Positions 40,304 through 59,491 of a stretch of 64,000 nt of DNA are shown one piece after another. The DNA is from Candidatus Bathyarchaeia archaeon (GTDB lineage: Archaea; Thermoproteota; Bathyarchaeia; 40CM-2-53-6; DTGE01), in the NCBI GenBank assembly GCA_038852285.1, contig JAWCKG010000005.1, forward strand, positions 16,812-80,811. Reading direction: 5' to 3'. Position 1 is the stretch's first letter. Every line of letters starts with the position of its first letter. Position numbers and translations under genes: made by a program. A model generated the notes under the pieces. The model did not search any database. It was not told where the DNA came from and saw nothing but the letters and a program-made list of their open reading frames with translations.

Positions 40304-40692
40304 TCACGTTCATCTACGCTCCAAGTTTAATGGGTCATCTCGAAGCCGAGCCTCATTAGCGCAATGTCGCTCACCGTTTCCTCAAAGAATAGCTAACAAG
40401 CGCATTTATATCGTTTCACGTCTTATGTTCGCTCTGTTCCTAATCATCTAAGGCTTTTAACGATTGCGGGTTAAACCTCATGCCCCTTTAAACCAGAATT
40501 CCACGAAACGTGGACAAGGAGGTTTGAAAGCCGCGTGAAGGGGGTTTTTGAAACCTTAACAGGGACGCTTGGTTAAGGTCAAAGCGAATATACTCCGACT
40601 TTGAGCAACGTTCTTGACTCGTGAAAGTTTGATTTCGATTGAGATTACGCGTCTTGTTTCCGCTCCAATCAGCCGCTGGATATCGTAACCCA

Positions 40693-42222
40693 TTAACCCT
40701 CTAGGTATTGAGCCACCTTCTTTCTAAGGGTTTCCCTATATTTCCTTAGGTTTTTACTCAAACTTTGATGAGCTGCCTCGAATTTAGACATGGTTTCTCT
40801 GAGGTTTTTCAGCGACCTACGCACTTCCATAGGCGCTGATGATCCCCCAGAGCGGCGGTGACTTACACATATGGACGGGTCTATGGCCGATTCCAGCTCT
40901 TTGGAAGACATGTGAATCATCCGTCCTAAAACTTCCTGGGAAGCCTTCTCCAAGTCTTCGGGTTTAACGTCTCTTATTCCCTTACCCGAGTTGGCCAGCT
41001 TCATAACCATCCTTCCCACTATCATGTGGGATTCTCTGAAGGATATTCCATGCCGCATAGTTAACGCTTCAGCCAAGTCTACCGCTGTGGAAAACCCCTT
41101 CTCCACCGCTTCTCTTAGACGATCCCGGTTTATCTTCAAGGTGCTGAACACGCCTTGAAGAACCTTCAAGGATGACTTTGCCGCTTCGAAGCTCACTTTA
41201 ACCGGGATTTTCGATTCCTGAAGGTCCCTGTTGTAGCCTGAGGGCGTCCCCTTTATCTGAGTCAGGAGGTTAATTAACGCTGAATATACGGTTCCAGCCC
41301 TTCCCCTCATCAACTCTAGGGGACAAGGGTTCTTTTTATGAGGCATTACGCTGGATGTAGAAGCGTATTCATCTGCGAGCTCCACATAGCCGTACTCCCA
41401 TGTCGACCATAGTATCAGGTCTTCCGCCATTCTGGAAAGGTCAGCCATCAGGTTCGCCAGACATGCCACAGCTTCCACAGCGAAGTCTCTGCTTGAAACC
41501 GCGTCCAACGAGTTTTCAACCAAACCGTCAAACCCAAGAAGCTTCATGGTTTTAGCCCTATCGATGGGGAAGCTTGTTCCCCCCACGGCGCATGCTCCAA
41601 GGGGAGACATGTTCACCCGCTTATAGCAGTCTAGAAGCCTCTCACAGCTCCGGCCAAGGACCTCCATATAGTACGCGTAGTAATGCGCTAGAACTCCTGC
41701 CTGCGCGTGCTGTGTATGCGTGTACAACGGCGCCAGGGTGTTGATTTCCTCCAAAGCCCTCGAGTGTAGCGTCCTCATTAAATCGAGGATCAAACCTATC
41801 GTTTCGACTATCTCAACCCTCAACTTCATCCTTAGGTCTAAGGCTACCTGATCATTTCTTGAGCGGGCAGTATGCATCCTCCCCCCCTTTTCAATTCCTA
41901 TGAGAGAGATCACTTGGCTTTCAACGTACTCGTGGATGTCCTCAAACCCGCCTTCCAAAACGGGGTTAGGTTCAAGCAGATTGGCTCTAACCTTCTCCAG
42001 GGCCCATAAAATCGCCTTCAACTCCAGCTTCGTGATGATGCCCTGCTCAGACAACATGATGTCATGAGCTTCTGTGCCGTCAATGTCCTCCATCGCCAAC
42101 CATAAGTCATCTTGGAGAGAGGAAACAAACTTCGCTGTTTCCACCCCATAACCCTTTGTGAGCCTCGACCGATAGACCCCTTCGTAAACCAAGCTGCCAA
42201 ACACCCTAACTTTAATGCTCAA
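40693..42222 (-). CDS. argH: Argininosuccinate lyase (fumarate-lyase family)
   Basis: Fumarate-lyase signature GTSSVMPHKKNP and the ArgH-like ENSLDAVSSRDF motif. Confidence 0.8.
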   Translation of the reverse strand: MSIKVRVFGSLVYEGVYRSRLTKGYGVETAKFVSSLQDDLWLAMEDIDGTEAHDIMLSEQGIITKLELKAILWALEKVRANLLEPNPVLEGGFEDIHEYVESQVISLIGIEKGGRMHTARSRNDQVALDLRMKLRVEIVETIGLILDLMRTLHSRALEEINTLAPLYTHTQHAQAGVLAHYYAYYMEVLGRSCERLLDCYKRVNMSPLGACAVGGTSFPIDRAKTMKLLGFDGLVENSLDAVSSRDFAVEAVACLANLMADLSRMAEDLILWSTWEYGYVELADEYASTSSVMPHKKNPCPLELMRGRAGTVYSALINLLTQIKGTPSGYNRDLQESKIPVKVSFEAAKSSLKVLQGVFSTLKINRDRLREAVEKGFSTAVDLAEALTMRHGISFRESHMIVGRMVMKLANSGKGIRDVKPEDLEKASQEVLGRMIHMSSKELESAIDPSICVSHRRSGGSSAPMEVRRSLKNLRETMSKFEAAHQSLSKNLRKYRETLRKKVAQYLEG

Positions 42223-42438
42223 GAAATCGTTATTAATGTTGACCCTGCCTTAATCGAACCGACCTCACGAGCCTTTGGCTTCACCGTTGACTTCTAATGG
42301 ATTAATACGCAGTGAAAAACAGGGGATAAAATTGTAGGCGAGAGCTACTATCCGGAGAGCGTTGCCTCCTCTTGAGGGGTTTCGGAGCCTTTTTTGGCAT
42401 CCTCAAATAAGGTAGAGAGTCATGTGAAAATTATACTT

Positions 42439-42948
42439 TTAATGAGTGTTAGTAGCCTTTGACTCCAGGGCTTCCCTAAGCTCCATAAGACGTTCACCCA
42501 TCTTCCTCCAGTCGAAGCTAAGCATTCGCAGCCTGAGACTGCAGACTCGAAGCTCCTTACTTAACTCCTCCACGAATATGCCGTGGTTTCCGTCGACGTT
42601 GCATGTTGGACTTCCCGTCCTCCCGATAAACCCTACAACCTCGTATCCTTTGCTTTTATACTCTTTAATCTGCTGGACCGCTTTAACCGCTAACGCATGG
42701 CAGTGACGGCGGAATCCTTCGTTGTCGTAGAATTTTCTATCCCGCGCCTTTCTATCCAACCCGTACATTTCCTGTTCAGGGCAAGGAAGTTGAATGACGC
42801 CGATTTGATGGGCTTGGATTAAATCCATTATTTCATTTACAATGGCTGGGTAATGGCTTGGACTGCTTGACCCCTCGCAGACGGCGTTCATATTCAATAT
42901 ACAATGGGAGAGAAGTATGACCTTGCCGCTCCTTCCATCTTGGATCAT
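42439..42948 (-). CDS. DUF523-family protein (TudS-like, putative 4Fe-4S)
   Basis: ILLSHCILN...LPCPE pattern resembling DUF523. Translationally coupled to the upstream radical SAM gene. Confidence 0.5.
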   Translation of the reverse strand: MIQDGRSGKVILLSHCILNMNAVCEGSSSPSHYPAIVNEIMDLIQAHQIGVIQLPCPEQEMYGLDRKARDRKFYDNEGFRRHCHALAVKAVQQIKEYKSKGYEVVGFIGRTGSPTCNVDGNHGIFVEELSKELRVCSLRLRMLSFDWRKMGERLMELREALESKATNTH

Positions 42949-42951
42949 GCT

Positions 42952-43950
42952 TCACCACAACGCGGTTGAAATCTTCACAGGACCTATTAGCGGTATTCTG
43001 CACCCGCATCGGGGACATCTATTCCCGCTCAACCTGTTTTTCAGGACCGTAAAGCCTTGCCTCGCTATCAGGAGGCCACCGCATTCCGGGCAATACGTGT
43101 TTTCGTATCGATGGCCTGGAACGTTTCCTAAATAAACGTATTTCAACCCATGTCTGTAGGCCGCTTCCACAGCTCTTTCAAGCGTTTTTACTGGGGTGCT
43201 CGGCCTATCCGTCATTTGGTACTCTGGGTGAAAACGAGTAAAGTGTAAGGGAATTTCTTCATCCATTTCACTGAGCCTTGAACAAACCTCCTCTACGGTG
43301 GCTTGATTGTCGTTTACCCCTGGAATTATGAGGCATACCACCTCCACATGGAGCCCTAGACTTCGGGCTAGGTTTATGTTTCTCCAAACCTTTTCAACAT
43401 CCGCTCCACAATACTTCCTCACGGCTTCGCATCCACCTTTCAAGTCGATTTTAACAGCGTCTAATCCAGCGTCTTTAAGCATCTTTAAGGCTTCTGGGGT
43501 CATGTACCCATTAGAAACATACGTGTTGTAAAGTCCCCGACTCTTGGCTAGGTGGAAAAGATCTAGGCTGTATTCAAGTTGAAGAGTTGGCTCATTAAAG
43601 GAGACAGAGGTCCCGTCGCAACCCCCCTCTAACGCCCTTTCAACCAGCGTCCATGGATTCACATAGTTCCCATCGTTTAAGCTTGGAGGCGTTTTGCTGA
43701 TTTCATGGTTTTGACACCAGGGACAAGTGAAGTTACAACCCCAACTGCCGATCGTCAAGGCGAGGCTACCAGGCTTATAGTGGAAGAAAGGCTTTTTCTC
43801 GATAGGGTTAATGGAAACGCTGGATAGATCACCGTAAATCACCGTGTACAAGCATCCCTTAATGTTCTTCCTCGTTTTGCAGAATCCCCATCCGTCCTCC
43901 TTTACGATACATCGCCTCTCGCATGTAAAGCATTGAGCCCTACCGTTCAC
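42952..43950 (-). CDS. Radical SAM enzyme of the AmmeMemoRadiSam type
   Basis: N-terminal QCFTCERRC...GFCKTRKN zinc-ribbon-like region and the CNFTCPWCQNHEIS (Cx3Cx2C-QNxEIS) motif diagnostic for this subfamily. Confidence 0.75.
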   Translation of the reverse strand: MNGRAQCFTCERRCIVKEDGWGFCKTRKNIKGCLYTVIYGDLSSVSINPIEKKPFFHYKPGSLALTIGSWGCNFTCPWCQNHEISKTPPSLNDGNYVNPWTLVERALEGGCDGTSVSFNEPTLQLEYSLDLFHLAKSRGLYNTYVSNGYMTPEALKMLKDAGLDAVKIDLKGGCEAVRKYCGADVEKVWRNINLARSLGLHVEVVCLIIPGVNDNQATVEEVCSRLSEMDEEIPLHFTRFHPEYQMTDRPSTPVKTLERAVEAAYRHGLKYVYLGNVPGHRYENTYCPECGGLLIARQGFTVLKNRLSGNRCPRCGCRIPLIGPVKISTALW

Positions 43951-44093
43951 TAAGCTTTCATATAACCTAGCTTCCCGAACAACCCGTAAACTCGTAATTT
44001 CGTGTAGAGAAGGCGACCGTGAAGTTATCCTTTAAATTTTAGCTCGACTCCTATAAAATCGTTTGTTAGAATTTACGGCCAGAGGCCCTTTAA

Positions 44094-45362
44094 ATGAAGG
44101 TCAAGTTAAGGTACGGTGAAAGGTTTCTGAACCTTGAGTTGAAAGATGAGAAGATAGTTTTCGACCTAGACATAGCTGACCACCCCTCGATTCAAAACAT
44201 GGAGGATCGACTTCGGCTCGAGCTGAAGAGGCCTCATTCCTCCCATCCCATCTCGTCGATCGCTGGAGCTGAGTCAAAAGTAGCCTTGCTCGTCGACGAC
44301 CTTACACGACCAACCCCCCAGAGTATCCTTCTCCCCATAATTCTAGGAGAGTTGGAAAAGGCTGGAGTTAAGAGTCATAACGTTAAGGTGATCGTCGCTT
44401 TGGGAACTCATAGACCTATGAGCAGTCAAGAGATCGAAGACAGGTTCGGAGAGGTGGCTGAGAAATATGAGGTTGTGAACCATGACCCCAAGGATTCGAA
44501 GGCGTTAACGAACATCGGTGCCACAGGTAAAGGCTTCCCGATCATGATTAACCGAGAATTATGGGAGGCGAACCTAACGATCGGTGTCGGTAACATCGTC
44601 CCCCATATGTACGCTGGGTGGGCTGGAGGGGGGAAAATCGTGCTTCCCGGGGTTTCTGGAGAGCAGACCACGGGTGGAATACACCTTCTTGGAGGAAGAA
44701 TTAGGCCGGCGTTCAAGTTTCTAGGCAGATTAGACCACGAAGTGAGAAGGTTAATAGACGAAGTCGCCTTAAAGTCAAGGTTAGGCTACATTGTTAACAC
44801 AGTGTTAAACAGAGATAGAAGGGTATGCGGTCTAACGGTGGGGCATCCTGTAGAGGCGTTCAAGAAAGGCGTTGCGTTCGCTGAGAAAATCTATAGGCAA
44901 ACCATTCCAGAGCCAGCCGACCTTGTCATCGTCTCCAGCTATCCTGCGGATGTCGATTACTGGCAAGCCATCAAAGGGGTTGTTTCAGCCAGCCTAGCGG
45001 TTAAGCCTGGAGGGGTTGTGTTATTGGTCACCCCCTGCCCTGAGGGAATTTCACCAACCCACAGAGCGATGAGGGAGTACGGATCCTACGGGTATGAGGA
45101 GTTAAATAAGATGGTGGAGGAAGGCGATATCGAAGACGCTGTGGCGGCTGGAACTCTCCTCTACCACGCCCAGCTTAGGGAGAAAGCCAGAATCATCATT
45201 TACTCGGACGGCTTAAAGGAGAAAGACGCTGAAGCCCTAGGCGTGGCCTACGCCGGCGACTTTGAGGAAGGCTTGAAGTTGGCTGAGGAATTCTTGGGAG
45301 AAAAAAAACCCAAAATCGGGTTGATACGTAATAGCGAGGTCCTTCCAACCCTTCCCATCTAA
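44094..45362 (+). CDS. LarA-like protein (nickel-pincer lactate racemase family, DUF2088)
   Basis: LVDDLTRPTP and ALGTHRP motifs characteristic of LarA. Confidence 0.7.
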   Translation: MKVKLRYGERFLNLELKDEKIVFDLDIADHPSIQNMEDRLRLELKRPHSSHPISSIAGAESKVALLVDDLTRPTPQSILLPIILGELEKAGVKSHNVKVIVALGTHRPMSSQEIEDRFGEVAEKYEVVNHDPKDSKALTNIGATGKGFPIMINRELWEANLTIGVGNIVPHMYAGWAGGGKIVLPGVSGEQTTGGIHLLGGRIRPAFKFLGRLDHEVRRLIDEVALKSRLGYIVNTVLNRDRRVCGLTVGHPVEAFKKGVAFAEKIYRQTIPEPADLVIVSSYPADVDYWQAIKGVVSASLAVKPGGVVLLVTPCPEGISPTHRAMREYGSYGYEELNKMVEEGDIEDAVAAGTLLYHAQLREKARIIIYSDGLKEKDAEALGVAYAGDFEEGLKLAEEFLGEKKPKIGLIRNSEVLPTLPI

Positions 45363-45390
45363 CCATCAATTCGATTCTTCAGGTTATCTG

Positions 45391-46572
45391 TCATCGATAC
45401 CCCCTTAACCCTGCTGCCAGCAAGATAAGAGCCGCCGAGAACATCGAAGTTAAGCTTAACATCAAAGTTGAGAAAGGCATAAGGACCGCCATAGAGCCGG
45501 CTATCGCCCTACCGATGGCCCCCCCTATGTCAGCTGAAGCCCACAGCGCCGCGATGGCCACGCTTAAATCCTCTGGGGGCTGGGTGTCGGTGAGCAGCGC
45601 TGAGGATGGTGGAACACGAATGCCCCAGGCGACACCGTATATCAGCATACCCAACGCTAAGTAGATGAAGCCGCGGGCCAGCGCCAGCGTGGTAAAGGCT
45701 AAGGCCGATAACGCGAAGCCGATCATCACAGGCTTCTTCCTACCAATTCTATCTGAGATCGAGCCTATCGGAATCCTCACCAAGGCGTTTAATCCTCCGA
45801 GTAGGGTGAATAGAACCGCGATGATGAATGGTGGCAAAAGCAGCTCGCGTGCCCCATATACGGGGAAGATGACTTGGAAAACTCCGTCGGCCACGAAGAA
45901 CATGACCGTGGCGAGGCAGAGAGTTGAAACTTCTCTGCGTTTAAGGATCTCAAAGAGGTGGAGCGCGGAGTCGAGTTTTGAGCCGTCTAAATTTCTCCAC
46001 CGGGTCTCCGTGGCCTTAAGCTCCCCGGAGGCTGCCAAAGCGGCGAGGGTGAGCAAACCTAAAGCTGGGAAAATTATGAGGGTGATGATAAGGGTTTTAA
46101 ACTCGAAGACTCTGAGGAGAACGCTTCCCAACGCTGGGCCGATGACCATGGCCATGCCGATGGAGAAGTAGTATCTACCTGAAACCATCCCTATCTTACC
46201 AGGAGGAGCTAGGTTAAGAGCCGTTGAGGCGATTATCGGACCGAAGGACGCGGAAGATAAACCGTACATAATGAGGATCGGCGCCAAGACGCGGGATGAT
46301 TTCGCTAGGTAGAGCAGTATGAAGGAGAGAATGTGGACAACGTAAGCGGATGATATGAACGGCCAGACTCTACGCTTCCTAGCCGCCACTCCGAAAGGAA
46401 CCTTCGTTAACAAGGTCGTCAGGGAGAGAGACCCCATGATCCATCCTACCTCCACTAATGAGGCCCCTAACTCCAAGGCGTACAGCGGGAATATTGGGGA
46501 AACAGCTTGCCAACCGACGAAGAAGGCGAATGACATCCATGTAATCACGTCTATACGTCTCCCCACGTCCAT
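45391..46572 (-). CDS. MFS transporter
   Basis: 12 predicted TM segments and MFS loop motifs (GSISDRIGRKK). Confidence 0.8.
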   Translation of the reverse strand: MDVGRRIDVITWMSFAFFVGWQAVSPIFPLYALELGASLVEVGWIMGSLSLTTLLTKVPFGVAARKRRVWPFISSAYVVHILSFILLYLAKSSRVLAPILIMYGLSSASFGPIIASTALNLAPPGKIGMVSGRYYFSIGMAMVIGPALGSVLLRVFEFKTLIITLIIFPALGLLTLAALAASGELKATETRWRNLDGSKLDSALHLFEILKRREVSTLCLATVMFFVADGVFQVIFPVYGARELLLPPFIIAVLFTLLGGLNALVRIPIGSISDRIGRKKPVMIGFALSALAFTTLALARGFIYLALGMLIYGVAWGIRVPPSSALLTDTQPPEDLSVAIAALWASADIGGAIGRAIAGSMAVLMPFSTLMLSLTSMFSAALILLAAGLRGYR

Positions 46573-46913
46573 CTTTCAACCCTCTTTTCACTCAGCATTA
46601 GCCTGAAGGGTTAAAGAGCCTTGAAGGCGTAAGCCACCAACGCTTCCCATCCTGATCAGATGACACTCCAACTACATCCTTCCTCGACTGGAAACCCCTA
46701 TGCCCGTCGGCAAGGTAGCCGTGATATTTCAACATATCTAATCCATTTAATAGGCGTATGGTTGAACCGGAAAATATAAGGCTCATGCTTCGATGATTCG
46801 CATCGACCTGGAATGATTCGACGTTGATGAGGGCTTGGTGGGTTTGCATTGAAGAAGTGGTTTAATAAGCCAGCTCATCGTTTAATGTTAGCTGTGAAAG
46901 GAGGGTTTAACAT

Positions 46914-47474
46914 ATGCCCATTATGCGAAGTAAGGATTGTGAGCTTGAAGGCTTGATGGACACCGCTAGACTCATGATGGTTGCGGCGAGAACTGCCCCT
47001 AAGTCCGGCGGCGTGGACGATGTGGAAACCGTCCTCCTCTACGGTGAAGAAAAAGATAAGTTGGCGGTTGAAATGGAGCGGATAGGGGAGGAGAGAAATA
47101 AACCTGGATTTCTCAGGGATGCGAAAAATGTGAGGGATTCAGACGTGGTGGTATTGATTGGAGTAGACGCTGCTAGAAGCTTCGGTTTAAACTGCGGGGC
47201 CTGCGGCTACACCACGTGTAAGGAGTTTGACGAAGCTGTTAGAAAAAGGGGTCTTGACTTCGAAGGCCCTTCATGCACATTTAAGGTACTAGATCTGGGA
47301 ATAGCTCTCGGCTCATCCGTTAAAACGGCAAGCCTTCTCGATGTTGATAACAGGATCATGTACCGAATCGCAGCGGCCGCTCATAGACTAGGGTTCCTAG
47401 AGAAATCCACATTATCCATGGGGATCCCCCTTTCAGCGAAGGGAAAAAACATATACTTTGACAGAAAAGCATAA
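46914..47474 (+). CDS. DUF2148-like ferredoxin-domain protein
   Basis: CGACGYTTC Cys cluster and conserved N-terminal ARTAPKSGG. Confidence 0.55.
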   Translation: MPIMRSKDCELEGLMDTARLMMVAARTAPKSGGVDDVETVLLYGEEKDKLAVEMERIGEERNKPGFLRDAKNVRDSDVVVLIGVDAARSFGLNCGACGYTTCKEFDEAVRKRGLDFEGPSCTFKVLDLGIALGSSVKTASLLDVDNRIMYRIAAAAHRLGFLEKSTLSMGIPLSAKGKNIYFDRKA

Positions 47475-47751
47475 ACAAATCCCTCCCATTTTTTAATGAT
47501 AAATTTACAGCCCATCAGAAATATTATGATCATTGGAACAGGCGTAGCAGTGTACATGGATTGAATGGTCTGGTTATGAGTGGTCTCAAATTTGTTGATT
47601 ATGAAAAATAAAACGGGTATTTTTCTAGATATTCGAGAGGAAGGTTATCATTATAATTACTGTCAGTTATTGGAAATAAAACTTGGGAAGAGATGGATGA
47701 TCTTAAATGTGGAATCGGTGCTTTATAATCGATGATTTTCAGTGTTTACGT

Positions 47752-47979
47752 CTACTTTGGCGCAGGGGCTTGTTCCCCCGGCTTTGGCTTCGCCTTTCTT
47801 ACTCTGCGTTTTCTCGGAACCGCGCGCCCCCTTCTCCTAGTGGGCTGGTTGATAATGGATAAGACTAGCTCTCGAATTTTTCCGCTCATATCACCTGGCA
47901 GCGCGTTTACGCCGTTCCTTAACTCCTCAGCTAGAGCCAGAAGCTTCGCGGCAGACCTAGTCCCTACTTTTCTCGACAT
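47752..47979 (-). CDS. Hypothetical small basic protein (75 aa), uncertain
   Basis: An amphipathic N-half and a very basic C-tail sit in a locally GC-richer patch. An overlapping plus-strand ORF makes the strand choice uncertain. Confidence 0.2.
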   Translation of the reverse strand: MSRKVGTRSAAKLLALAEELRNGVNALPGDMSGKIRELVLSIINQPTRRRGRAVPRKRRVRKAKPKPGEQAPAPK

Positions 47980-48931
47980 AAATCATCAAAATGTTTTATA
48001 TATTTGGTCTAATAAATAAAGCTTTCTCATCTTAAACAATGGAGTTCATGCTTCTCATAAAACTCGTTTTGTGTTAAGTACAAATTAAAGAAGGAATATG
48101 ATAGATACGTTGCAAATACATATGATTTGAGAAATACTGGTTAAAGAGGACCATTACCTTACTTGAAAAATAACGCTTTCATTAAACCTGAAAAGAATTA
48201 AAAATAGTAGTACATTTTAAGATAGTTTAGAGAAGTGTTAAATTCTGTTTCTGTTTAATAATTCATTCATCGGTTATAGACGTCTATGTCTTGAGGGACT
48301 AGTGTTATGTGGAATGATGCTAGGAGCGGTTTGAAAAATTTTTAGCTGACGATTCAAAGAACTATTCTAATCTGTAAAAGATGTGACTCAATTGTTTATT
48401 TGACGAAGTAAATTAGGTTTGCTTTCAACTACTAGGGCTATGCTGATTACACTCCACACCCTAGATCCGTTTCGCTCCGTCAGGCTAAACTGACTGGATT
48501 CTAATCTTCACAAGCTTCTATAGACTTCTTAAATATTGATTTAAGCCATCTAACCTTATCTTTAACCATTTTAAAATTTTAGTTAACACAGAGCCATACG
48601 TCGACATTGTGCTGATTTATATTAAATGCGACTTACATATCGACGCATGTCAAATTAATGTGATACGCAGAAAACCTGAAATTGACGTTATAAAAATTCA
48701 ATGACCAAAAATTAAGACGTTAATTAACATCCTCACGGGCTGGTGTGTATAGCTTTTCACAAACCTATTCCATCTTTTTCCAAGCCATAAGGATAGGGTG
48801 AGGGATTCAATGCGTCCCACACCTTTTCTATGAAGCTGATAAAACCATCTAAGAGAAGACTACGATTTAGAATGTTATAGACCTTAAGATTAAGAATTTA
48901 AATGGGAGGTGCGTGAAATCAATATGAATAT

Positions 48932-49035
48932 GCGGGGGTTGCCAAGTCAGGTCAAAGGCGCAGGGCTTAGGACCTACATCAACGTAGGAAACCCTGTCCC
49001 GAAGGGGTTCGTGGGTTCGAATCCCACCCCCCGCA
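48932..49035 (+). tRNA. tRNA-Leu(UAG) with a roughly 19-nt intron in the anticodon loop and a long variable arm. No encoded CCA.
   Basis: Acceptor GCGGGGG pairs with CCCCCGC. T-arm is GTGGG-TTCGAAT-CCCAC. Anticodon stem is CAGGG/CCCTG, loop CTTAGG with the intron at 48972..48990. Variable arm is TCCCGAAGGGGTTC. Confidence 0.8.
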
Positions 49036-49126
49036 CTTTTGCGTTTACTTTTATTATCGTATGGAGAATATGATAAAATATTGTTCCGGTAAGAAGTCAA
49101 ACTCCTCCTTTAATTGGTATCTAGCT

Positions 49127-49617
49127 TTATGCATCTCGCCCTAATGACTTCCTTTGGAACAAAATGCCTAAACATTCTATTAAAACTGAATCCACCATCA
49201 CTTCTAACTCTATGATGGCGATTCCTCCGTTTGGTTTCGACTTGTCTCTCAATTTTCTAAAATAGTATACCCGATTTGGCAAATGATGATTAACGTTTCG
49301 CATAAAGACTAAATCTAGGCTCCTTCTAGGTAGAGGTAACTCATCTTTCGAGATAAGGATCGTTTCAACGTTATCTAAGCTTTTTATTTGGCTTTATCCT
49401 TGATAAATTCTAGAAATCCGGGATCTGTGCCAACCGAAAACACTTGGCCTTTTCTCCCGACTGTATTTGTAAACCGTGTAGAATAATATCCGCCTCCAGC
49501 TTCAATGTCAGCCACTATTTGTACTGACTGCGATATGAGTGCTTCCAATATCTCATCAGGTTTGTTTTTGAGGTCAGACGCTTTCCTATTAAACATCTCT
49601 GCCTTAAGATTTCTCAT
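49127..49617 (-). pseudogene. Class I SAM-dependent methyltransferase disrupted by a frameshift
   Basis: The N-part (49384..49617) carries motif I VADIEAGGGYY and post-I VFSVGTDPG. The C-part continues in a -1/+1 frame down to the stop at 49127 (LDLVFMRNVNHHLPNRVYYFRKLRDKSKPNGGIAIIE, matching MTase motifs II-III). Confidence 0.6.
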
Positions 49618-49765
49618 TCTCTACATATCTCATCAACAATTCTGAATGTTCATAATTTTAAGTATTCATTGGAAACAAAAAAGGACTTTATCTTAACATC
49701 TTTGTTTGGGTAAAAACGAGAATTTAAACCATTTTAAAACCAAATAGCCTCTATTAGGAACAATT

Positions 49766-49948
49766 GTGTCTTTGCGCCTCAGCTTGTATAAGGCTCATAA
49801 GGCAGTTTTAGATGGAGAGCATGTTCAGCCCAAGTTCATCGATTCAGGCATATACGTCGTTGTAAAGCATCCAATGTACCTTGGAACCTTACTCTTTTGC
49901 CCATCATTTCTACTCATAAGCCTCCCGCTTCTTTCAACAGGCATCTGA
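49766..49948 (+). pseudogene. C-terminal fragment of an ICMT/phospholipid-methyltransferase-family membrane methyltransferase
   Basis: GIYVVVKHPMYLG matches the G-Y...RHP-Y-G motif of the ICMT family. There is no coding-like N-terminal region upstream. Confidence 0.4.
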
Positions 49949-50063
49949 GTCGTGTTCTTCACAACGCTCGAAAAGACTTAGCTGACATAATTAGAGGAAG
50001 TCTCTTTAAGTTAAAAGTACATCAAACATTATCCTATACAGTTATTTAGGCGGAAGAAGAAGG

Positions 50064-50498
50064 TTAGACCTTCTCTGCTTCTATCTGAGCAAGCTTATAT
50101 TTTGCTTTCAGAAGCTTCGAATAAAGGGCTGATACCTTGGCAGCGTTCTTGCTTAATAGGGCCTTAAGAAGGTCCCCTTCAATCTCGGCTACTTCTAACC
50201 GTTGATAATAGTCCAGTGTTTCTTTGAAGTGGGCTAATACGATTTTACCTGTCAGGATTGGATGATTGTTTGTGACGTTAGCCTCTGGAAAGCGCATCCC
50301 ATGCTCAAATTCGACTTCTAATCCAATCCGAAAATTCTCAACGGATATTTCCATGCCGCTTGTTTCAATTTCCGCCAAGATTTTCTTGGCCTCATCGATC
50401 GTAACCTCAGCCTTTTCCAGATAGGTCCAATCCCTAATTCCAAGTTTCTTGCAAACATTTTGAACTTCTTCAATTGAAACGTACTCTGGAAGCTTCAT
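50064..50498 (-). CDS. Hypothetical protein (144 aa) in the accessory region
   Basis: Clean ORF with normal composition. No recognised motif. Confidence 0.45.
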   Translation of the reverse strand: MKLPEYVSIEEVQNVCKKLGIRDWTYLEKAEVTIDEAKKILAEIETSGMEISVENFRIGLEVEFEHGMRFPEANVTNNHPILTGKIVLAHFKETLDYYQRLEVAEIEGDLLKALLSKNAAKVSALYSKLLKAKYKLAQIEAEKV

Positions 50499-50809
50499 AT
50501 AGTTTCACAACCCTACAGAAATAAACAGCGATGAAATAGGATTTATGCTTATCGACCTCAAGGTACATATAATCGTAGGATCATTTTCTCAGACTACGAG
50601 GCCTAAAACTTTTCTTCTTCTGGAAATCTTCCGTTGACGTCTATTTAATTAACCATTCGTCAAATGTATTAAAATTTTAATGTGTTAGGGTTTCTTGAAT
50701 CGCGATTCCTATGAAATTTCGGGCGAATAGATTGGGGCATGGAACCCAACATCGCCATCGATTAGGTTGAAGAAAAGGTTATTATATTGGGGGTCTAAGG
50801 TTAAGCTCG

Positions 50810-51214
50810 GTGACCGGAATGGTTGAGGAGAAGCCCACAACCGCTTATATACTCTCCTTGATAGGGGGAGTCATGATCTTGGTAGGTGGCTTAAGCACAG
50901 TTGCCGTGATGGGAATGTGGCGGTGGGGCATGATGCATGGATGGAACCTCAGGTTTGCTCCAACAGTGATCGATAGATGGACTTTCATACCGATGATGTT
51001 CACCATCTTAGGTTTGTTCGGAGCGATCTGCGGCATCATAGTCATCGTGGGATCTCATATGCTTAAATCACGTCCTGAGGAGCATTTCAAATGGGGGACA
51101 ATGATCCTTATATTCTCGGTGCTGAGCATCTTTGGAGGGGTGGGTGGTTTTGTAGTTGGGCTAATCCTAGGAGTTGTAGGGGGAGCATTGGCTATTTCTT
51201 GGAAGCCAAGGTAA
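50810..51214 (+). CDS. Small membrane protein (4 TM, glycine-rich)
   Basis: Hydrophobic helices with GGxGG patches. Confidence 0.5.
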   Translation: MTGMVEEKPTTAYILSLIGGVMILVGGLSTVAVMGMWRWGMMHGWNLRFAPTVIDRWTFIPMMFTILGLFGAICGIIVIVGSHMLKSRPEEHFKWGTMILIFSVLSIFGGVGGFVVGLILGVVGGALAISWKPR

Positions 51215-51861
51215 ACTCAACGGAACCTTCTCTAGGTTAGGAAGATTTCGCAACTAGACAAGCCTTGCGTAAAACTTAGAGCTTTGATTATGCGAATTCC
51301 CCTTAACGATTTACCTTCTTCCATCTTATCTCGGAAACATCCCCTCATCGTACCGGAAAGGCCGTTTCCTTGGCATACCAGGGTCCATAGTAGGCTCAGG
51401 CCATTTTAGTCGCAGGCATTTATCTAGTCATGGCAGGTCGGACAAAGATATATACGGTTCAAGGGCGACACGTTGTCGAGGGGCATAGGAGCGTGTAAGA
51501 CAACCTCAGTGCTTAGGGTTCATCCTGCTGACACTGGAATGGCTGATCCATCGGCCAACTTTTATCACCGCGATTCTGTGGCCAAATCTAACGTTTTCAT
51601 ATTATGGATTGCTGTGAAGGAGGAGGATTAATATCCCATACTTGGTGAAGGTTACGAAAAATACGTTAGGAATGTACGGACGTTCATACCTAGAATAGGG
51701 GGTCAGCCCCTCTCTGCAGAGCCCCTAGGAGCACCGCATGAAGAAGTGCTCCTTCATGGAAGAGAATGTGTTATTTTAGACTAATTTCCACGTTGTTTGG
51801 GTTGCTATGAATATGAGCCTTATTGCGCAAACCTTTTAAAAAAACTCTATCAACTTTATAG

Positions 51862-53250
51862 TTGATGCCTATGGTTGAAATTAAGGAGAAATTGGAACCT
51901 TTTTTTAACCCGAGCTCCGTGGCAATAATAGGCGCTACTACTAGAACTGGGGCCGGCGCGTTCAACGTTATGGAGAACATGATACGGTTTGGCTACGAGG
52001 GCGAAATTTACCCAGTGAACCCGAGGTATGAGGAGGTTCTAGGAAGGAAGTGCTATAAGGACATTAAGGACGTCGATGGAAAGGTGGATCTTGCTTTAAT
52101 AGCCATTCCTAGGCACATAGTCCCCGGCGTTGTGAAGGACTGCGCGACAAAGAGTATAAACTCGGTCATAATCGTGAGTCAAGGATTCGCGGAGGTTGGA
52201 GGGGAAGGCAAGAAGTTTCAAGATGAAATTGTAGAGACGGCGAAGAAAACTGGAATGAGAATATTGGGTCCGAACACTTTAGGAACCCATAACTTCTTCG
52301 ACAACTTCACATCTTCGTTCATACCCCTTAAGAAGAGGGATTATGAGCCCATCGGCATCATCTGTCAGACCGGGCTCTTCTTCGCCGGGTTCCCCAGGTT
52401 TAGGTACGGAAAGGCCGTAGATGTGGGAGGATGCTGCGATATAGACCCAGTAGACATGGTCAGATATTACGCTGAGGATCCAAACATAAAGCAGATTTTC
52501 GTCCATATGGAAGGCCTTCGGCCGGGTCGAGGCAGAGACTTCCTCGAGGCCGCTAGGGAAGCGAAGGGTAGGGGAAAAGACCTCATCGTTATGAAGGTCG
52601 GGGAAACTGAAACTGGGAAAAAGGCGATAATATCCCATACCGGCTCACTAGCTGTAGAGGATAGGGTGTTCGAAGGAGCTTTACGGCAAGTTGAGGTTCC
52701 ACGCGTTAGGGATTATACCGAGCTGCAAACAGTCAGCCACGCCTTACTTAAGCTTCCTAAGATGAGGGGGAACAGGTTAGCGATGCTGACGCATCATGGA
52801 GCCTCAGGCGTGATGGCGGTGGACGCAGCGGAAGAGTTTGGTTTAAAGTTCGCTGAACTGTCGGAGGAGACAAAGAAGGCTGTACAGGAGCTTTCACCAG
52901 CATGGCTTCCAATCGGAAACCCAATAGACATCTGGCCTGGGTTAATGGGGGGGCCTGAAAAGATGCATGAAACTGCCCTTAAAGCCGTCTTGGAGGATAA
53001 AAACGTGGACGGTGTACTCCTCTCCATTCATATAGCTGACTACAGCCCCTGGCCGATTGGAACCTACGGCCACATCGAAGCCCTCAGAAAGCTTGCTCCC
53101 CAGTACGATAAGCCAGTGATCGTGGTGCCAATAGGCACGGAGCAGGAGGGCACAAGAAGAGGTCTGGAGGAGGTTAAAAACGTGGCGGTGTTTGACAACA
53201 TAAGGGACGCTTTTAAGGCGTTCTCAGCATTAGCGCCCCCTGAGGTTTAG
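51862..53250 (+). CDS. ADP-forming acyl-CoA synthetase alpha subunit
   Basis: CoA-binding N-domain SVAIIGATTRTGAGAFNV, 462 aa. Directly followed by the beta subunit. Confidence 0.85.
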   Translation: MMPMVEIKEKLEPFFNPSSVAIIGATTRTGAGAFNVMENMIRFGYEGEIYPVNPRYEEVLGRKCYKDIKDVDGKVDLALIAIPRHIVPGVVKDCATKSINSVIIVSQGFAEVGGEGKKFQDEIVETAKKTGMRILGPNTLGTHNFFDNFTSSFIPLKKRDYEPIGIICQTGLFFAGFPRFRYGKAVDVGGCCDIDPVDMVRYYAEDPNIKQIFVHMEGLRPGRGRDFLEAAREAKGRGKDLIVMKVGETETGKKAIISHTGSLAVEDRVFEGALRQVEVPRVRDYTELQTVSHALLKLPKMRGNRLAMLTHHGASGVMAVDAAEEFGLKFAELSEETKKAVQELSPAWLPIGNPIDIWPGLMGGPEKMHETALKAVLEDKNVDGVLLSIHIADYSPWPIGTYGHIEALRKLAPQYDKPVIVVPIGTEQEGTRRGLEEVKNVAVFDNIRDAFKAFSALAPPEV

Positions 53251-53251
53251 G

Positions 53252-53986
53252 GTGAGGAGGATGAGGTCCAAGATTTTACAGGAGCTTTCAGCGAAGGGGG
53301 TAGAGCTCCTCAGCGAATATGAGGCTAGAATCATCCTTCAAGAATATGGCATCCCATGCCCCAAGGAGGTGATGGTCGATTACCGAGAGGGAGAGAAGGG
53401 CTCAGAGTACTTAAGAGAGCTCAAAAAGATTGAAGAATGGCCGGGGTATCCGCTGTTTTTCAAAGTGGTGTCCCGCGACATAAAGTCAGCTACAGACGCT
53501 AACGCGATAAGGAGGGCCACCTCGGATGTCGAGGCCGCCCCTCTAATAGACGCGATTATAAGCAACGCAAAAAAGTATAAAGAAGGCATAAAAATTGAGG
53601 GGATTCTGGCCAGCGAAGACGTTTCCACCCATGAAACCCGAGAGATGCTCATCGGGTCCACGGTTAACGAGCAGTTCGGCCACCTCATCTCCCTAGGATT
53701 CGGGGGCGTTTACGTAGAAGTTTACAGAGACGTGGAGTTTAGAGTAATCCCCATCAAGGAACTGGACGTCCACAACATGATCAAGCATTTAAGAGGAAGA
53801 GAGTTGCTTGGAGCGTTCAGAACGGCGAGACCTGTGGACTTGAGGTTGCTTGTTGACACCGTTCTTAAAGTTTCGAAGATGGTTGAGGAAAACCCTGAGA
53901 TAGTTGAGCTAGACATAAATCCCTTGATCGTTGGCCCCGACCGAGCTGTAGCCGTGGACACGTTGATCAGGATGCGGGCGAAGTAG
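53252..53986 (+). CDS. ADP-forming acyl-CoA synthetase beta subunit (ATP-grasp)
   Basis: 244 aa ATP-grasp protein. Starts 2 nt after the alpha stop. Confidence 0.8.
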   Translation: MRRMRSKILQELSAKGVELLSEYEARIILQEYGIPCPKEVMVDYREGEKGSEYLRELKKIEEWPGYPLFFKVVSRDIKSATDANAIRRATSDVEAAPLIDAIISNAKKYKEGIKIEGILASEDVSTHETREMLIGSTVNEQFGHLISLGFGGVYVEVYRDVEFRVIPIKELDVHNMIKHLRGRELLGAFRTARPVDLRLLVDTVLKVSKMVEENPEIVELDINPLIVGPDRAVAVDTLIRMRAK

Positions 53987-53987
53987 C

Positions 53988-56702
53988 GTGGAGCTTATAC
54001 CCACATATTGCTACCAGTGCTATAATGGTCCAGACCCCATACTGGTAAAGGTGGAAGACGGTTTCGCCGTTGGAGTCGAGCCGAACTACGCCCTAGCCTC
54101 CAAACACCATTCTGGTGGGAGGGTTTGCTCAAACGCCTATGGATTGATTGAGAAACTATATAATCCGCACAGGGTGAAGACGCCTTTACTTAGAACGAAT
54201 CCGAACAAGGGGGGAAATGAAGACCCTGGTTGGAAGGAGATAAGCTGGGGCGAAGCCCTAGACATCTTAGCAGACAGGTTTCGGAAGGTGAAGGAGAAGG
54301 GAGGCGTGGACGAGAACGGATACCCGAGGATGGCTCTGACCCTAGGGGCCGCGGGCACTCCTGAGGGCCACTTCGGCCTGTTACCAACCTTTTTATCAAC
54401 GATGTTTAGGTGGGTGGGGCCTATGGACTTGACTATAGGAACCGGTCAAGGCGTAAAATGCTACCATTCAGAGCATGTATATGGTGAATTCTGGCATAGG
54501 GCCTTCATGGTTGTCGCCGATCTCCCCAGAACGAGATATTTAATCTCTTTTGGCCACAACGACGTTGGCTCCGACGGTGTCACCGCTTGGAGGTTGGCTC
54601 AGGCCAAGGAGGATGGGTTAAAAATCGTTAAGGTGGAGCCGCATCTTTCGGCCAGCGCGGCCTTCGCGGATAAGGTGGTTTTTATTAAGCCGAAAACGGA
54701 TGCCATGTTCCTCTTCTCCATGATACATGTGATTCTTCATGAAAATAACTGGCGGGAAGTTTGCGACCTAGAGTTCCTAAAGAAAATTACGAATAGCCCC
54801 TATTTGATAGGACCTAACGGATACTACATAAGAGATGTGGAAACAAGAAAGCCATTAGTATGGGATCCCGGTGACGTAAGAGCGAAACGTCACGACGACC
54901 CCTCAATTAAGGACTACGCGTTGGAGGGAAAATTTGAGGTAGGGGGAGTGGAGGTAGGACCTAACGGAGAGGTTTGGGAGCATGAAACCGTTGAATGTAA
55001 GCCCAGCTTTCAACTGCTTATGGCTCATGTGAAGGAGTATACGCCTGAATACGCAGAGAAAGTATGCGAGATTCCTAAAGGCACTGTGAGGGATGTAACT
55101 AAAGAGTTCCTTGAAAACGCATGCGTAGGAATGATGGTGGAGGTGAACGGAGAGAAGCTTCCTTACAGGCCTGTCGCCATAGAGTTGGGAAAGACCGTCA
55201 ATAACGGCCCCGGAGGATATGAAACCTGCTGGGCTCGAACGGTATTGCTTTCACTCGTCGGAGCGCTGGAAGTCCCAGGAGGAGCCATCGGCTCAGGAAG
55301 CAGGTTAAACCCTCCTTACGAGATGCGGTGGATGAGCGTAGAACCCGGCCCGGATGGCTTTATGCTTCAAAATCTAAATCCAACGGGCAAGGAGGAGTGG
55401 CCTCCAAAGGTGATGTTTAGAGGGCCCTTCACGGCGCTTTGCCCCATCATGGGATCCCGAGGATGGGCAAGCGGAATAGCCCCATTTACGCTGGCCTGGA
55501 TGTTCATGGATGAGACCCCTGAGGGCTGGCCTAATCCATCACCTCCCGACATCTGGATCATATACCGGGCAAACCCGCTCAGAACCCAGTGGGACCCAGG
55601 CCTCATGGAAAGGGTGGTGAAGAAGTGCCCGTTCATAACCCACATCACCTACATCATAGATGAGACAAGCTGGTACGCCGACCTGGTCCTACCCGACCAC
55701 ACAGACTTGGAAGGATACCAACTAACTCCAATCTTCTCCAAGCATTGGTATAGCCTGTGGGATCACTACGGCTACATCCTAAAGCAACCGGTCGTGAAGC
55801 CCATTCACAACACGATGGACATGACGGACATCATAGTCGAGTTAATGGACAGGTTGGGACTGCTGGTAGAGTTTAACTCTCGGGTTAACAGGGGGTCCGG
55901 CACTGGGATCCCACTAGCCGGCGGAAACTACGATTTTAGGCTGAAGGAGGATGAAAAACACGGTTCAGAGGAGATCTGGGATAGAATATGTAAAGCGGCT
56001 ACAGCGATGTTAAGCGACGGAAAAGAAACATACGGATTAGACTGGTTTAAGAAGAACAGCATTTATTTAAAGCCTTACCCAAAACCTGAGAAATACCTGT
56101 ATTACGTGTTAAAAAAGAAGGGCCTCAGGTTTGAGGTCCCCTATCAGGAAAGCGTCAAGAAAGTTGGAGCTGCGCTTAAAAATAGGCTCCATGAACGGGG
56201 GATTAAATGGTGGGATAGACAGCTTGAAGAATATCAAGCGCTACCGCGCGCGAAGGACTTTTCTAAGTTGTGGGATGAATACTACTTAAAGATTGGAGTG
56301 AACCCTGAAGACTTTGACATGTGGTTGATCGCCAGCAGAAGCCCCAACTTGGTGTGGACGGGCAATGTGTCAAACCGTAGGATGCTTAAAGCGGCGGCGA
56401 GGGCCTTAGACTTCGGAGGCGTTGTGATAAACAGGGAGGCGGCTGGTGAAAGGGGGATTGAACATGGAGACGCCGTCATCGTGGAGTCTCCCTTCGGGAA
56501 AAAGAAGAGTAGGGTGATCGTAAGGGAGGGACAAAGGCCAGATGTGGCCCTGCTCGTCGGCCAGCTCGGCCAATGGGTAGCCCCATACGCTAAGGATGTA
56601 CCCGCACCGAATGTAAGCGACTTCGTCAAGCTTGACCTAGACATTCTAGACGCTGGAGGGTCCTCATGCGACCTGACTCGAGTAAGAATCTATAAGGCAT
56701 AA
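53988..56702 (+). CDS. Molybdopterin (bis-PGD) oxidoreductase catalytic subunit. Cytoplasmic (no Tat signal), with a degenerate FS0 motif.
   Basis: 904 aa, DMSO-reductase-family architecture. The N-terminus reads CYQCYNGP (CxxCxxxP in place of CxxCxxxC) with a fourth Cys at RVCSNAYG. There is no twin-arginine leader. The GTG start lies 2 nt after the ACD-beta stop. Confidence 0.85.
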   Translation: MELIPTYCYQCYNGPDPILVKVEDGFAVGVEPNYALASKHHSGGRVCSNAYGLIEKLYNPHRVKTPLLRTNPNKGGNEDPGWKEISWGEALDILADRFRKVKEKGGVDENGYPRMALTLGAAGTPEGHFGLLPTFLSTMFRWVGPMDLTIGTGQGVKCYHSEHVYGEFWHRAFMVVADLPRTRYLISFGHNDVGSDGVTAWRLAQAKEDGLKIVKVEPHLSASAAFADKVVFIKPKTDAMFLFSMIHVILHENNWREVCDLEFLKKITNSPYLIGPNGYYIRDVETRKPLVWDPGDVRAKRHDDPSIKDYALEGKFEVGGVEVGPNGEVWEHETVECKPSFQLLMAHVKEYTPEYAEKVCEIPKGTVRDVTKEFLENACVGMMVEVNGEKLPYRPVAIELGKTVNNGPGGYETCWARTVLLSLVGALEVPGGAIGSGSRLNPPYEMRWMSVEPGPDGFMLQNLNPTGKEEWPPKVMFRGPFTALCPIMGSRGWASGIAPFTLAWMFMDETPEGWPNPSPPDIWIIYRANPLRTQWDPGLMERVVKKCPFITHITYIIDETSWYADLVLPDHTDLEGYQLTPIFSKHWYSLWDHYGYILKQPVVKPIHNTMDMTDIIVELMDRLGLLVEFNSRVNRGSGTGIPLAGGNYDFRLKEDEKHGSEEIWDRICKAATAMLSDGKETYGLDWFKKNSIYLKPYPKPEKYLYYVLKKKGLRFEVPYQESVKKVGAALKNRLHERGIKWWDRQLEEYQALPRAKDFSKLWDEYYLKIGVNPEDFDMWLIASRSPNLVWTGNVSNRRMLKAAARALDFGGVVINREAAGERGIEHGDAVIVESPFGKKKSRVIVREGQRPDVALLVGQLGQWVAPYAKDVPAPNVSDFVKLDLDILDAGGSSCDLTRVRIYKA

Positions 56703-56715
56703 AGAGGGCGACGAC

Positions 56716-57363
56716 ATGACGCATTGGGGGATGGTGATAGACCTAGGGAAATGCATCGGCTGCATGACATGTACAGTCGCGTGTGAATGCGAAAACTTCC
56801 TTCCTTATGGACTCTCATGGGCGAAGGTTGCGGATTTCGAAGATGGAAAATACCCCGCGGTTAAAAGAACGTTCCTTCCAACGCTATGCATGCATTGTGA
56901 TGAAGCTCCCTGTGTGAAGACGTGCCCCACTGAGGCTACGATGAGGCGTGAAGACGGAGTCGTCATAACCGACTATGACAAATGCATCGGCTGCAGGCTC
57001 TGCATGATCGCTTGCCCCTACGATTCCCGCTCATACGTGGAGAAACTAGAGCTACCTTTGCCGTTATCTTTAATGAAAAAAGAGGTTAGGTCCAAGTATC
57101 AGCTCATAAAAGATCAAACGGCGTCAAAATGCACCTTCTGCGCCCACAGAATAGACAAGGCGAAGGAAACAGGCAAAACACCTGGCAAGGATCCTGAAGT
57201 AACACCGATATGCGTAAACACCTGCGTAGGAAACGCCAGGTATTTCGGAGACCTAGAAAACCCGGAAAGCGAGGTTTCAAAGCTCGCGAAAAGCGACAGA
57301 GCCTTCGTGCTTTACGAGGAAGCAAAAACCCGTCCTTCCGTATACTACTTAAAGAGGAGGTGA
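56716..57363 (+). CDS. Four-cluster 4Fe-4S ferredoxin subunit (DmsB/PsrB-like)
   Basis: CIGCMTCTVAC, CMHCDEAPC, CIGCRLCMIACP and CTFC...C motifs. Confidence 0.85.
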   Translation: MTHWGMVIDLGKCIGCMTCTVACECENFLPYGLSWAKVADFEDGKYPAVKRTFLPTLCMHCDEAPCVKTCPTEATMRREDGVVITDYDKCIGCRLCMIACPYDSRSYVEKLELPLPLSLMKKEVRSKYQLIKDQTASKCTFCAHRIDKAKETGKTPGKDPEVTPICVNTCVGNARYFGDLENPESEVSKLAKSDRAFVLYEEAKTRPSVYYLKRR

Positions 57364-59343: not shown

Positions 59344-59390
59344 GCTCCTCGAGGAGTAATGGTAGCGTCATCTGCTCGGCCAACTGTTTT

Positions 59391-59425
59391 ACGTTGAAAA
59401 TTAATTTTTACGTTGAAAATTAATT
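59391..59425. repeat. Exact tandem direct repeat acgttgaaaattaatt x2 (period 19)
   Basis: Identical 16-mers at 59391-59406 and 59410-59425. Confidence 0.8.
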
Positions 59426-59491
59426 AATGAGTGACGAGGCCTCATAAGGGGGCGTTCAACGATTTTTTTTAGAAGGTGCTCCCTTGTCGGG

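Follow-up and report, generated by a model that had tools for sequence, protein, structure and literature searches.

In Thermococcus, genes for leucine transfer RNA (tRNA-Leu) serve both as integrase attachment (attB) sites and as breakpoints of synteny (PMC5495485). A second point of reference is provided by archaeal elements and captured genes that are linked to tRNA genes, including those associated with SSV-type and pTN3/TKV4-type integrases (PMC5495485, PMC7253208, PMC8371274). Here, both are compared with a gene-poor stretch of ~4.4 kb (47480–51860; the pieces shown cover 47475–51861) that surrounds a tRNA-Leu(UAG) gene in a hot-spring Bathyarchaeia metagenome-assembled genome. The window refers to the whole 64-kb stretch of DNA that was analyzed, and coordinates are those of the window unless a contig is named. 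The explanation that we favor, with roughly even confidence, is that the stretch is a patchwork located at a break in gene order, into which DNA was brought by recombination anchored on the tRNA-Leu and then left to decay neutrally, and that it is not a single element.

Resemblance to either kind of described system is partial. As with tRNA-linked elements, foreign-looking DNA of low GC content abuts an intact tRNA-Leu gene, and in relatives part of the tRNA 3′ end is retained beside the same gene, a class I methyltransferase (MTase) that is a pseudogene in the window. Unlike such elements, the window has no whole or split integrase, no bounding direct repeat, and no virus or plasmid genes, and the unit shared among lineages is a module of ~0.7 kb with a single gene. 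As with the Thermococcus breakpoints (PMC5495485), gene order breaks 1.5 kb from the tRNA-Leu relative to a species that is ~84% identical, and in other Bathyarchaeia lineages the boundary of homology falls inside tRNA-Leu. The tRNA would act as a recombination site in this clade, in a manner that resembles the attB and breakpoint tRNAs of Thermococcus (PMC5495485). In contrast to those breakpoints, the one in the window (50566/50567) lies outside the tRNA, and neither an inverted tRNA partner nor an integrase was identified.

The stretch is the least-coding piece of the window and the lowest in GC content. Only 26.8% of it is coding, at 40.2% GC, versus 91.6% and 50.1% for the remaining window, and all other non-overlapping pieces of the same size are at least 74.5% coding and at least 47.1% GC (standard deviation 0.015). 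An initial reading of the DNA from its letters and open reading frames (ORFs), referred to here as the sequence-only reading, had described the region as low-coding and AT-rich, and these figures agree. The stretch is AT-rich mostly because it is gene-poor, since non-coding DNA is AT-rich throughout the genome; such DNA has a GC content of 41% elsewhere in the window and genome and 37% within the stretch.

The break in gene order was located against a sister species, represented by contigs L100–L104, whose ADP-forming acyl-CoA synthetase (ACS) alpha subunit shares 90% amino acid (aa) identity with that of the window. These contigs follow the gene order of the window, at ~84% identity, from 50567 past 63773 to the end of the window. 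Leftward, the homology runs through the intergenic DNA upstream of a DUF6114 gene and stops at the start-codon position of an FMN reductase (FMN_red) gene that is absent from the window. Farther left, the sister species carries thermosome, Rpb6, M50 protease, and NurA/HerA genes, none of which is present in the window. On the opposite side, a scan of JGI metagenomes with the DUF2148 protein of the left flank recovered one close relative (L105), which is 86% identical to 40279–47497 and whose contig ends 23 nt past DUF2148. With synteny on the right from 50567 and conservation on the left to 47497, the non-collinear part is 47498–50566. A scan of GTDB with the same protein returned 80 loci, of which the best matches were from Bathyarchaeia (up to 67% identity) and none shared a neighboring gene.

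Two parts of the stretch are delimited by this alignment. The right third (50567–51860), including an ICMT-family pseudogene described below, is native DNA common to the sister species. To its left, a block of low GC content (49036–50566) extends from the tRNA 3′ end to the exact synteny boundary, with a composition unlike that of the host. Its GC content is 38.5%, versus 50% for the genome, a difference to be read with the caveat that much of the block is non-coding or pseudogene DNA, a type that is AT-rich genome-wide. Within the block, the DUF5661 gene has a GC content at third codon positions (GC3) of 0.44, and MTase copies have a GC content of 0.38–0.42.

The MTase is a full-length pseudogene (49057–49617, minus strand, 38% GC) of a UbiE/ArsM-like class I S-adenosylmethionine (SAM) methyltransferase of ~190 aa, as delineated by tblastn and a six-way nucleotide alignment. 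It is convergent with the tRNA and ends 21 nt from it. An intact homolog (P0001, 191 aa) matches it by tblastn over residues 1–188, in four frame segments covering 49057–49617. The gene had been described as frameshifted, and the alignment reveals more damage than this: a GAA>TAA stop codon with an adjacent 1-nt deletion, two further 1-nt deletions, and changed SAM-binding residues, with motif I altered from DIGAGGG to DIEAGGG and VFAVD to VFSVG. Since the same sequence was obtained in independent assemblies, these lesions are not sequencing errors. The window branch has accumulated 41 substitutions, versus 10 and 16 on two intact sister branches, and their even spread over codon positions (12/18/11) indicates neutral decay. 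Programmed frameshifting was also considered and was ruled out by the three separate deletions, the stop codon, and the loss of motif. The best family matches are UbiE/MenG, ArsM, and CmoB, and homologs of ~190 aa, which carry the name UbiE or arsenite methyltransferase, occur widely in Bathyarchaeia and in other archaea.

Related copies of the gene exist in several other Bathyarchaeia lineages. By blastn, 49013–49738 is 85% identical to contigs L091-93 (87% over the aligned gene), in which the gene is intact, and 48931–49730 is 85% identical to L099; identities to L090, L094, and L097 are 80–82%. The parts common to these loci are the gene, ~125 nt upstream in four of the lineages, and a short downstream spacer that leads into the 3′ end of a tRNA-Leu. 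Flanks are otherwise unrelated, with the exception that L094 and L097 resemble each other upstream of the MTase. In the window, the upstream part comprises ~120 nt (49618–49738, minus strand, 26% GC) conserved with L091, L090, and L099, and homology to relatives stops there. This upstream DNA is conserved about as well as the gene itself in the four lineages (window, L091, L090, and L099), and it could be a promoter, a leader, or a regulatory element.

What follows the gene varies from lineage to lineage. In L099, from a sample unrelated to that of the window, the MTase is followed by a complete tRNA-Leu(GAG). In L091-93, it is followed by exactly 23 nt of a tRNA-Leu 3′ end (L091, 3088–3110) and then by unrelated DNA, with no tRNA; on our own reading, the next gene looks like a radical SAM enzyme. 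In L094 (6858–6928), a degenerate tRNA-Leu-like sequence and then a tRNA-Pro(CGG) follow the gene, and in L090 (10586–11792) ~8 nt are followed by a transporter gene and then a tRNA-Leu(CAG); in both contigs, the tRNA-Leu copy in which homology ends is degenerate. Depending on the lineage, the tRNA-Leu beside the same MTase is thus one of three leucine isoacceptors: UAG (window), GAG (L099), or CAG (L090). In L090, the gene (10001–10495; GCA_038883335.1) has a lesion of its own: a 1-nt insertion gives the annotated 164-aa “class I SAM-dependent methyltransferase” a frameshifted C-terminus. The gene has therefore been inactivated or truncated a second time, independently.

The composition of the MTase differs from that of its hosts. 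While the host loci range from 40 to 50% GC, the gene is 38–42% GC in every host. The contigs with the ~87% identical copies are themselves at 40–43% GC. For example, in L090 (a host of ~50% GC), the GC3 of the gene is 0.30 versus 0.49–0.57 for its neighbors. Identity at third codon positions among MTase copies is 67–89%, while the corresponding identity between the window and the sister species is 62–69% for the ACS and molybdopterin oxidoreductase genes. Together, GC content, GC3, and third-position identity favor lateral spread of the module, with one end of the recombination in tRNA-Leu.

The favored explanation would therefore involve the following steps. The tRNA-Leu(UAG) would be a working gene, its 19-nt intron being cut out by the archaeal splicing endonuclease. 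Directly 3′ of it, the 1.5-kb low-GC block contains the intact DUF5661 gene together with the dead MTase and an ICMT-family tail; the block is not at this site in the sister species, and at least the ~0.7-kb MTase module would have been acquired laterally from a Bathyarchaeia lineage of lower GC content. The recombination would have had one end in tRNA-Leu and could have been either integrase-mediated, or homologous with the conserved tRNA as its anchor. To the right, starting at 50567, the DNA is native, with the DUF6114 gene and an ICMT pseudogene that was already dead in the ancestor common with the sister species. Methyltransferases released from selection would have undergone neutral decay, losing single nucleotides, SAM-binding residues, and larger segments and gaining a nonsense codon, and the FMN reductase gene found at the sister junction was presumably deleted in the window. 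Decay and deletion would then have left the long AT-rich non-coding DNA. The pseudogenes with their lesions, the neutral evolution of the MTase, the synteny boundary, the composition, and the junctions with tRNA fragments in relatives are directly shown by the data; the lateral origin of the whole 1.5-kb block, the mechanism of recombination, and the order of events are what we infer.

Several points weigh against the patchwork explanation. No recovered contig of a relative covers the tRNA with either conserved flank, nor does any join the two flanks. In the sister species, DUF2148 is not adjacent to DUF6114, so a simple insertion cannot account for the difference in gene order. The explanation does not account for the 1.45 kb located 5′ of the tRNA. 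Distances among the MTase hosts are known just from GC content, with no synteny and one possibly paralogous hydrogenase (52% aa identity) to go by, and strong purifying selection with vertical descent in a low-GC clade could explain part of the MTase similarity. Finally, low GC may be intrinsic to the DUF5661 gene, which is also lower in GC content than its neighbors in two other loci (L188 and L189). The former belongs to an organism of 41% GC and is distinct from the sister species, although a sister-species contig was obtained from its sample.

If vertical descent were the whole story, the tRNA-Leu/MTase pair and its neighbors would be ancestral chromosomal genes, the need for them would have been lost in this lineage, and decay would have taken place where the genes stand, with the rearrangements having occurred in the relatives rather than in the window. 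This account, which we consider unlikely, draws on the observation that in five lineages (window, L099, L091, L094, and L090) the MTase has a tRNA-Leu, or what remains of one, beside it. One ICMT pseudogene was also demonstrably inherited from the ancestor common with the sister species, and another pseudogene at 59578–60022 indicates that decay is not limited to the stretch. It is less easily reconciled with the low GC content of the MTase in all hosts, including two of ~50% GC, or with the GC3 contrast in L090. Likewise, when the 41 neutral changes are subtracted, the window MTase is by our estimate ~95% identical to that of L091, while the host loci are 7–10 GC points apart, and beyond the ~125 nt upstream no flanking gene is shared. 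The ~0.7–0.8 kb unit of MTase, 125-nt upstream region, and tRNA-Leu 3′ end might itself be a minimal, integrase-less module that spreads through tRNA-Leu-targeted recombination and is dead in the window, a proposal that strikes us as distinctly improbable. Such a module would rely either on integrases acting in trans or on homology to the conserved tRNA for its anchor, and it would land by different leucine isoacceptors (UAG, GAG, CAG), leaving tRNA fragments or pseudo-tRNAs behind.

A true self-mobile element, either a virus or a plasmid, might instead have inserted itself in tRNA-Leu by its own tyrosine integrase and since lost both the integrase and the distal att site. The low-GC block starts immediately after the tRNA 3′ end, the 23-nt copy of the tRNA-Leu 3′ end on the MTase module of L091-93 resembles an att core, an integrated element in a related contig (L097) indicates that such elements occur in the group, and tRNA-Leu has the Thermococcus precedent (PMC5495485). 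We nevertheless judge this origin to be doubtful. A six-frame Pfam search of 47475–51865 matched MTase, PEMT, DUF5661, and DUF6114 only, with no integrase fragment or other mobile-element domain, and the flanking ORFs that were checked, up to 13 kb away on each side, are housekeeping genes, with no integrase or other mobile-element gene among them. A duplicated tRNA 3′ fragment, which the sequence-only reading had proposed as the att site to look for, was not found in the 64 kb: a 26-mer of the tRNA had no second match with up to 3 mismatches, the 23-nt 3′ core had a chance-level match only with up to 7, and the 40-nt 5′ half had none with up to 14. As a control, L097 shows a 46-nt repeat. Local alignments for a degenerate tRNA copy were at null level at all junctions. 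PHROGs gave weak, generic MTase matches only, phage and plasmid collections matched the tRNA only, and IMG/VR yielded nothing for the orphan ORF p75 and, for DUF5661, a distant domain within a large viral protein only. In addition, the unit shared among lineages is just ~0.7 kb with one gene, and in L090, L094, and L099 it is placed among housekeeping genes. The description of the region as a decaying island at a tRNA hotspot thus survives in that the DNA is accessory, decaying, located at a tRNA, and partly foreign-looking, while the integrase, att site, and virus or plasmid genes of an integrated element were not found.

An artefact of assembly or binning, with a chimeric join made at the tRNA (which behaves as a repeat in metagenome graphs), is in our view extremely improbable. 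Two Logan contigs (L008 and L009) have their first nucleotide in the tRNA T-arm, at exactly 49010 and 49011, as is typical of assemblies that break at a shared repeat, several others end between 47497 and 48394, and, beyond the window's own assembly, only GCA_038849055.1 spans 48395–49010. However, that separate assembly (contig JAWCND010000007) agrees with the window at 99.96% identity across 44065–57000, the entire stretch included, and the MTase–tRNA junction is also found in L099.

The integrated element of L097 (4363–9264) is a textbook case. Its tRNA-Ala(CGC) gene lies at 9190–9264 on the minus strand, and an exact 46-nt direct repeat of the tRNA 3′ part lies 4.8 kb away at 4363–4408, where it overlaps the start of an integrase-like ORF (4362–5297). 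Between the repeats are small ORFs, an RHH protein, and CcdA.

The two kinds of methyltransferase remnant had also been suggested to derive from a former restriction-modification or methylation system. This origin is not supported, because the enzymes are of small-molecule and membrane O-methyltransferase types: one is UbiE/ArsM-like, the others are membrane ICMT/PEMT-type, and the six-frame Pfam search detected no DNA methyltransferase or nuclease domain. Accordingly, the stretch should not be annotated as a prophage or as a restriction-modification relic. The proper annotation is one intron-containing tRNA-Leu(UAG), three pseudogenes of methyltransferases, two conserved genes that are intact, and an orphan ORF of doubtful status.

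The kind of locus is one already known, namely an ordinary region in which genes decay and are rearranged and some of the DNA is foreign. Its interest lies in providing a small, dated example of gene decay, with one pseudogene older than the split from the sister species and another that is younger and apparently laterally acquired, and in showing a gene-order break near tRNA-Leu in Bathyarchaeia, a group without cultured model organisms. If it is true that the module of MTase and tRNA-Leu fragment moves, the role of tRNA-Leu as a recombination site in Thermococcales would extend to another archaeal group.

The tRNA-Leu(UAG) gene occupies 48932–49035 on the plus strand and is predicted to contain a 19-nt intron at 48972–48990, in the canonical position 37/38. 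Rfam detects one tRNA over these coordinates (46.9 bits), in which 22 nt are inserted into the anticodon loop. ARAGORN overlooks the gene with default settings; with the -i option, it finds a 19-nt intron but places it with a shift, so that the anticodon is read as UGA (Ser). The fold has a z-score of -3.65 and contains a bulge-helix-bulge (BHB) with a 4-bp central helix (C35-G57, U36.G56, U37-A55, and A38-U54 in gene numbering) and 3-nt bulges, GGA and AAA. This structure sets the splice sites at 37/38 and yields the loop CUUAGGA, hence the anticodon UAG; the sites were assigned by hand from sequence and fold. A long variable arm and discriminator A73 are present, and the exons are near-identical to the 85-nt tRNA-Leu(GAG) of L099. 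Taken together, these features support the identification of an intron-containing tRNA-Leu(UAG) that had been made from the letters. The gene has nothing unusual among intron-containing tRNA genes of archaea, sharing the canonical 37/38 site, 4-bp central helix, and 3-nt bulges, although its distal helix is weak in the hand assignment. Unlike it, the tRNA-Leu(GAG) and tRNA-Leu(CAG) beside the same MTase in relatives have no intron.

Two ICMT-family remnants accompany the MTase, so that three methyltransferase-type pseudogenes cluster within 2.7 kb. The first (49826–50056, plus strand) is the C-terminal third of a gene; it retains ~75 codons with four in-frame stops and lacks its N-terminal half, as befits the truncated ICMT-family fragment reported earlier; a 60-aa ORF (49766–49948) overlaps it. 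Its matches to Pfam PEMT (E 0.002–0.004) and NCBIfam isopcys_mtase (E 4e-4) are sub-threshold, and it matches the reconstructed ICMT of the sister species by tblastn at E 0.003. Assignment to the ICMT/PEMT family is likely on these matches and weaker than that of the second copy.

The second remnant (51297–51690, plus strand) is 5′-truncated, lies in three scrambled frames, and has an ortholog in the sister species (74% nucleotide identity). It lies within a stretch (51215–51860) that had been described as an AT-rich gap. By tblastn it matches the sister reconstruction (E 2e-25), its frames being scrambled and interrupted by a stop codon. The sister copy is less damaged: in one frame, with two in-frame stops and a late frameshift (L100 versus L102), it gives a 173-aa protein that scores 38.6 bits for Pfam ICMT (threshold 24), 32 for PEMT (threshold 25), and E 5e-14 for NCBIfam isopcys_mtase. 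The family assignment rests on this better-preserved copy, as the window reconstruction by itself has no Pfam, NCBIfam, or PDB match. Since the gene is broken in both species, the pseudogene is older than their split. The idea that the two remnants are duplicates of one another was dropped, as they have no significant similarity, and they are treated as separate genes. As a group, the three pseudogenes are like the unitary pseudogenes of prokaryotes, in which a frameshifted or truncated gene, either housekeeping or accessory, decays neutrally. They resemble these in their 1-nt deletions, nonsense codon, motif loss, and even substitutions, and in the presence of one of them in two species; they are unlike these in being clustered and all of methyltransferase type, with one apparently lateral.

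The region had been said to contain only small or hypothetical ORFs. Two of these ORFs, DUF5661 and DUF6114, are intact members of conserved families. The DUF5661 gene (50064–50498, minus strand; Pfam, 37.3 bits) encodes 144 aa, and its GC3 is, by our calculation, ~3 standard deviations below the value of roughly 0.58 for other ORFs of the window. Among 7985 homologs scored, the best 120 are 142–150 aa long (mostly 144), are 72–81% identical to it, and come from several archaeal phyla, with Bathyarchaeia, Methanomethylicia, and Thermoplasmata among the groups represented. The gene is not accessory: its family is conserved very widely in archaea. In two loci (L188, 4093–4527; L189, 8001–8435), it stands beside ferritin, Zip, and FUR genes, neighbors that hint at metal homeostasis. 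The predicted structure is a confident, all-helical model, with a predicted local distance difference test (pLDDT) value of 86.7 and no fold match in PDB (best E about 1), and neither a paper nor a solved structure was found for the family. The viral protein in IMG/VR that contains a distant DUF5661 domain is 864 aa long.

The junction DNA upstream of DUF5661 (50499–50566) has no sister-species counterpart in the alignment, while the adjoining intergenic DNA (50567–50809) is homologous to the divergent intergenic region between FMN_red and DUF6114 in the sister species. The intact, native DUF6114 gene (50810–51214, plus strand) encodes a membrane protein with 82% aa and 79% nucleotide identity to that of the sister species. 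At the right end, 51691–51861 is the region upstream of the ACS alpha gene, in which sister homology is detectable from 51809. Beyond it, the housekeeping genes of the right flank encode ACS alpha and beta, molybdopterin oxidoreductase, Fe-S proteins, and ribosomal proteins S19 and L2; those of the left flank encode PhoU, an ABC transporter, argininosuccinate lyase, a radical SAM enzyme, LarA, an MFS transporter, and DUF2148.

To the left of the tRNA, an AT-rich spacer (47475–47751, 33% GC) separates DUF2148 from p75, a putative 75-aa coding ORF (47752–47979, minus strand, 54% GC). The product would have a helical N-terminal part and a basic, AT-hook-like tail, and it belongs to no Pfam, NCBIfam, or PHROG family. 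Among 1.84 billion representatives, there are only two relatives: a strain variant of 95% identity and a protein of 39% identity with the same layout, in which basic repeats of RGRP type come after a helical N-terminal part. Strain differences in p75 comprise four nonsynonymous and two synonymous changes. Single-nucleotide polymorphisms (SNPs) between two strains are concentrated at 47674–47854, covering the p75 3′ end and the DNA just downstream, where 17 of 26 differences over 2.7 kb fall in these 180 nt. The cluster could reflect a recombination tract or relaxed constraint.

From p75 to the tRNA, 952 nt of featureless non-coding DNA (47980–48931, 32.7% GC) contain no ORF of >40 aa, no match in six-frame Pfam or Rfam searches, no meaningful repeats, and no tblastx match to 2 Mb of Bathyarchaeia loci. 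Only one strain SNP is present at 47980–48394. The p75 promoter presumably lies at the left end, and a TATA-like ATTTAAAT at 48895–48903, ~30 nt before the tRNA, is on our reading presumably the tRNA promoter. A replication origin in the AT-rich gap was considered and dropped, as there were no ORB-like (origin recognition box) or other repeats; Orc1/Cdc6 was not sought in the rest of the window. For structured RNAs in the gaps, Rfam at E <= 1 returned the tRNA and two chance-level matches only.

The window's other long gap (59344–60272, 929 nt) contains a two-frame pseudogene at ~59578–60022 on the minus strand, and the sister species has just 386 unrelated nt in its place. The pseudogene is related (45–58% aa identity) to a 157-aa protein encoded beside the intact MTase in L091, which has a weak match to MGMT-type DNA_binding_1 (E 0.0016, below threshold). 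An inversion linking the MTase to this pseudogene was rejected, since the copy is only 45–58% identical and the sister species is collinear on both sides. A 78-aa ORF in L100 looked transposase-like; it had no Pfam support, and no claim is made for it. Lastly, a 90-aa ORF at 8264–8536 (GC3 0.43) is the sole other strong low-GC3 outlier among the ORFs of the window.

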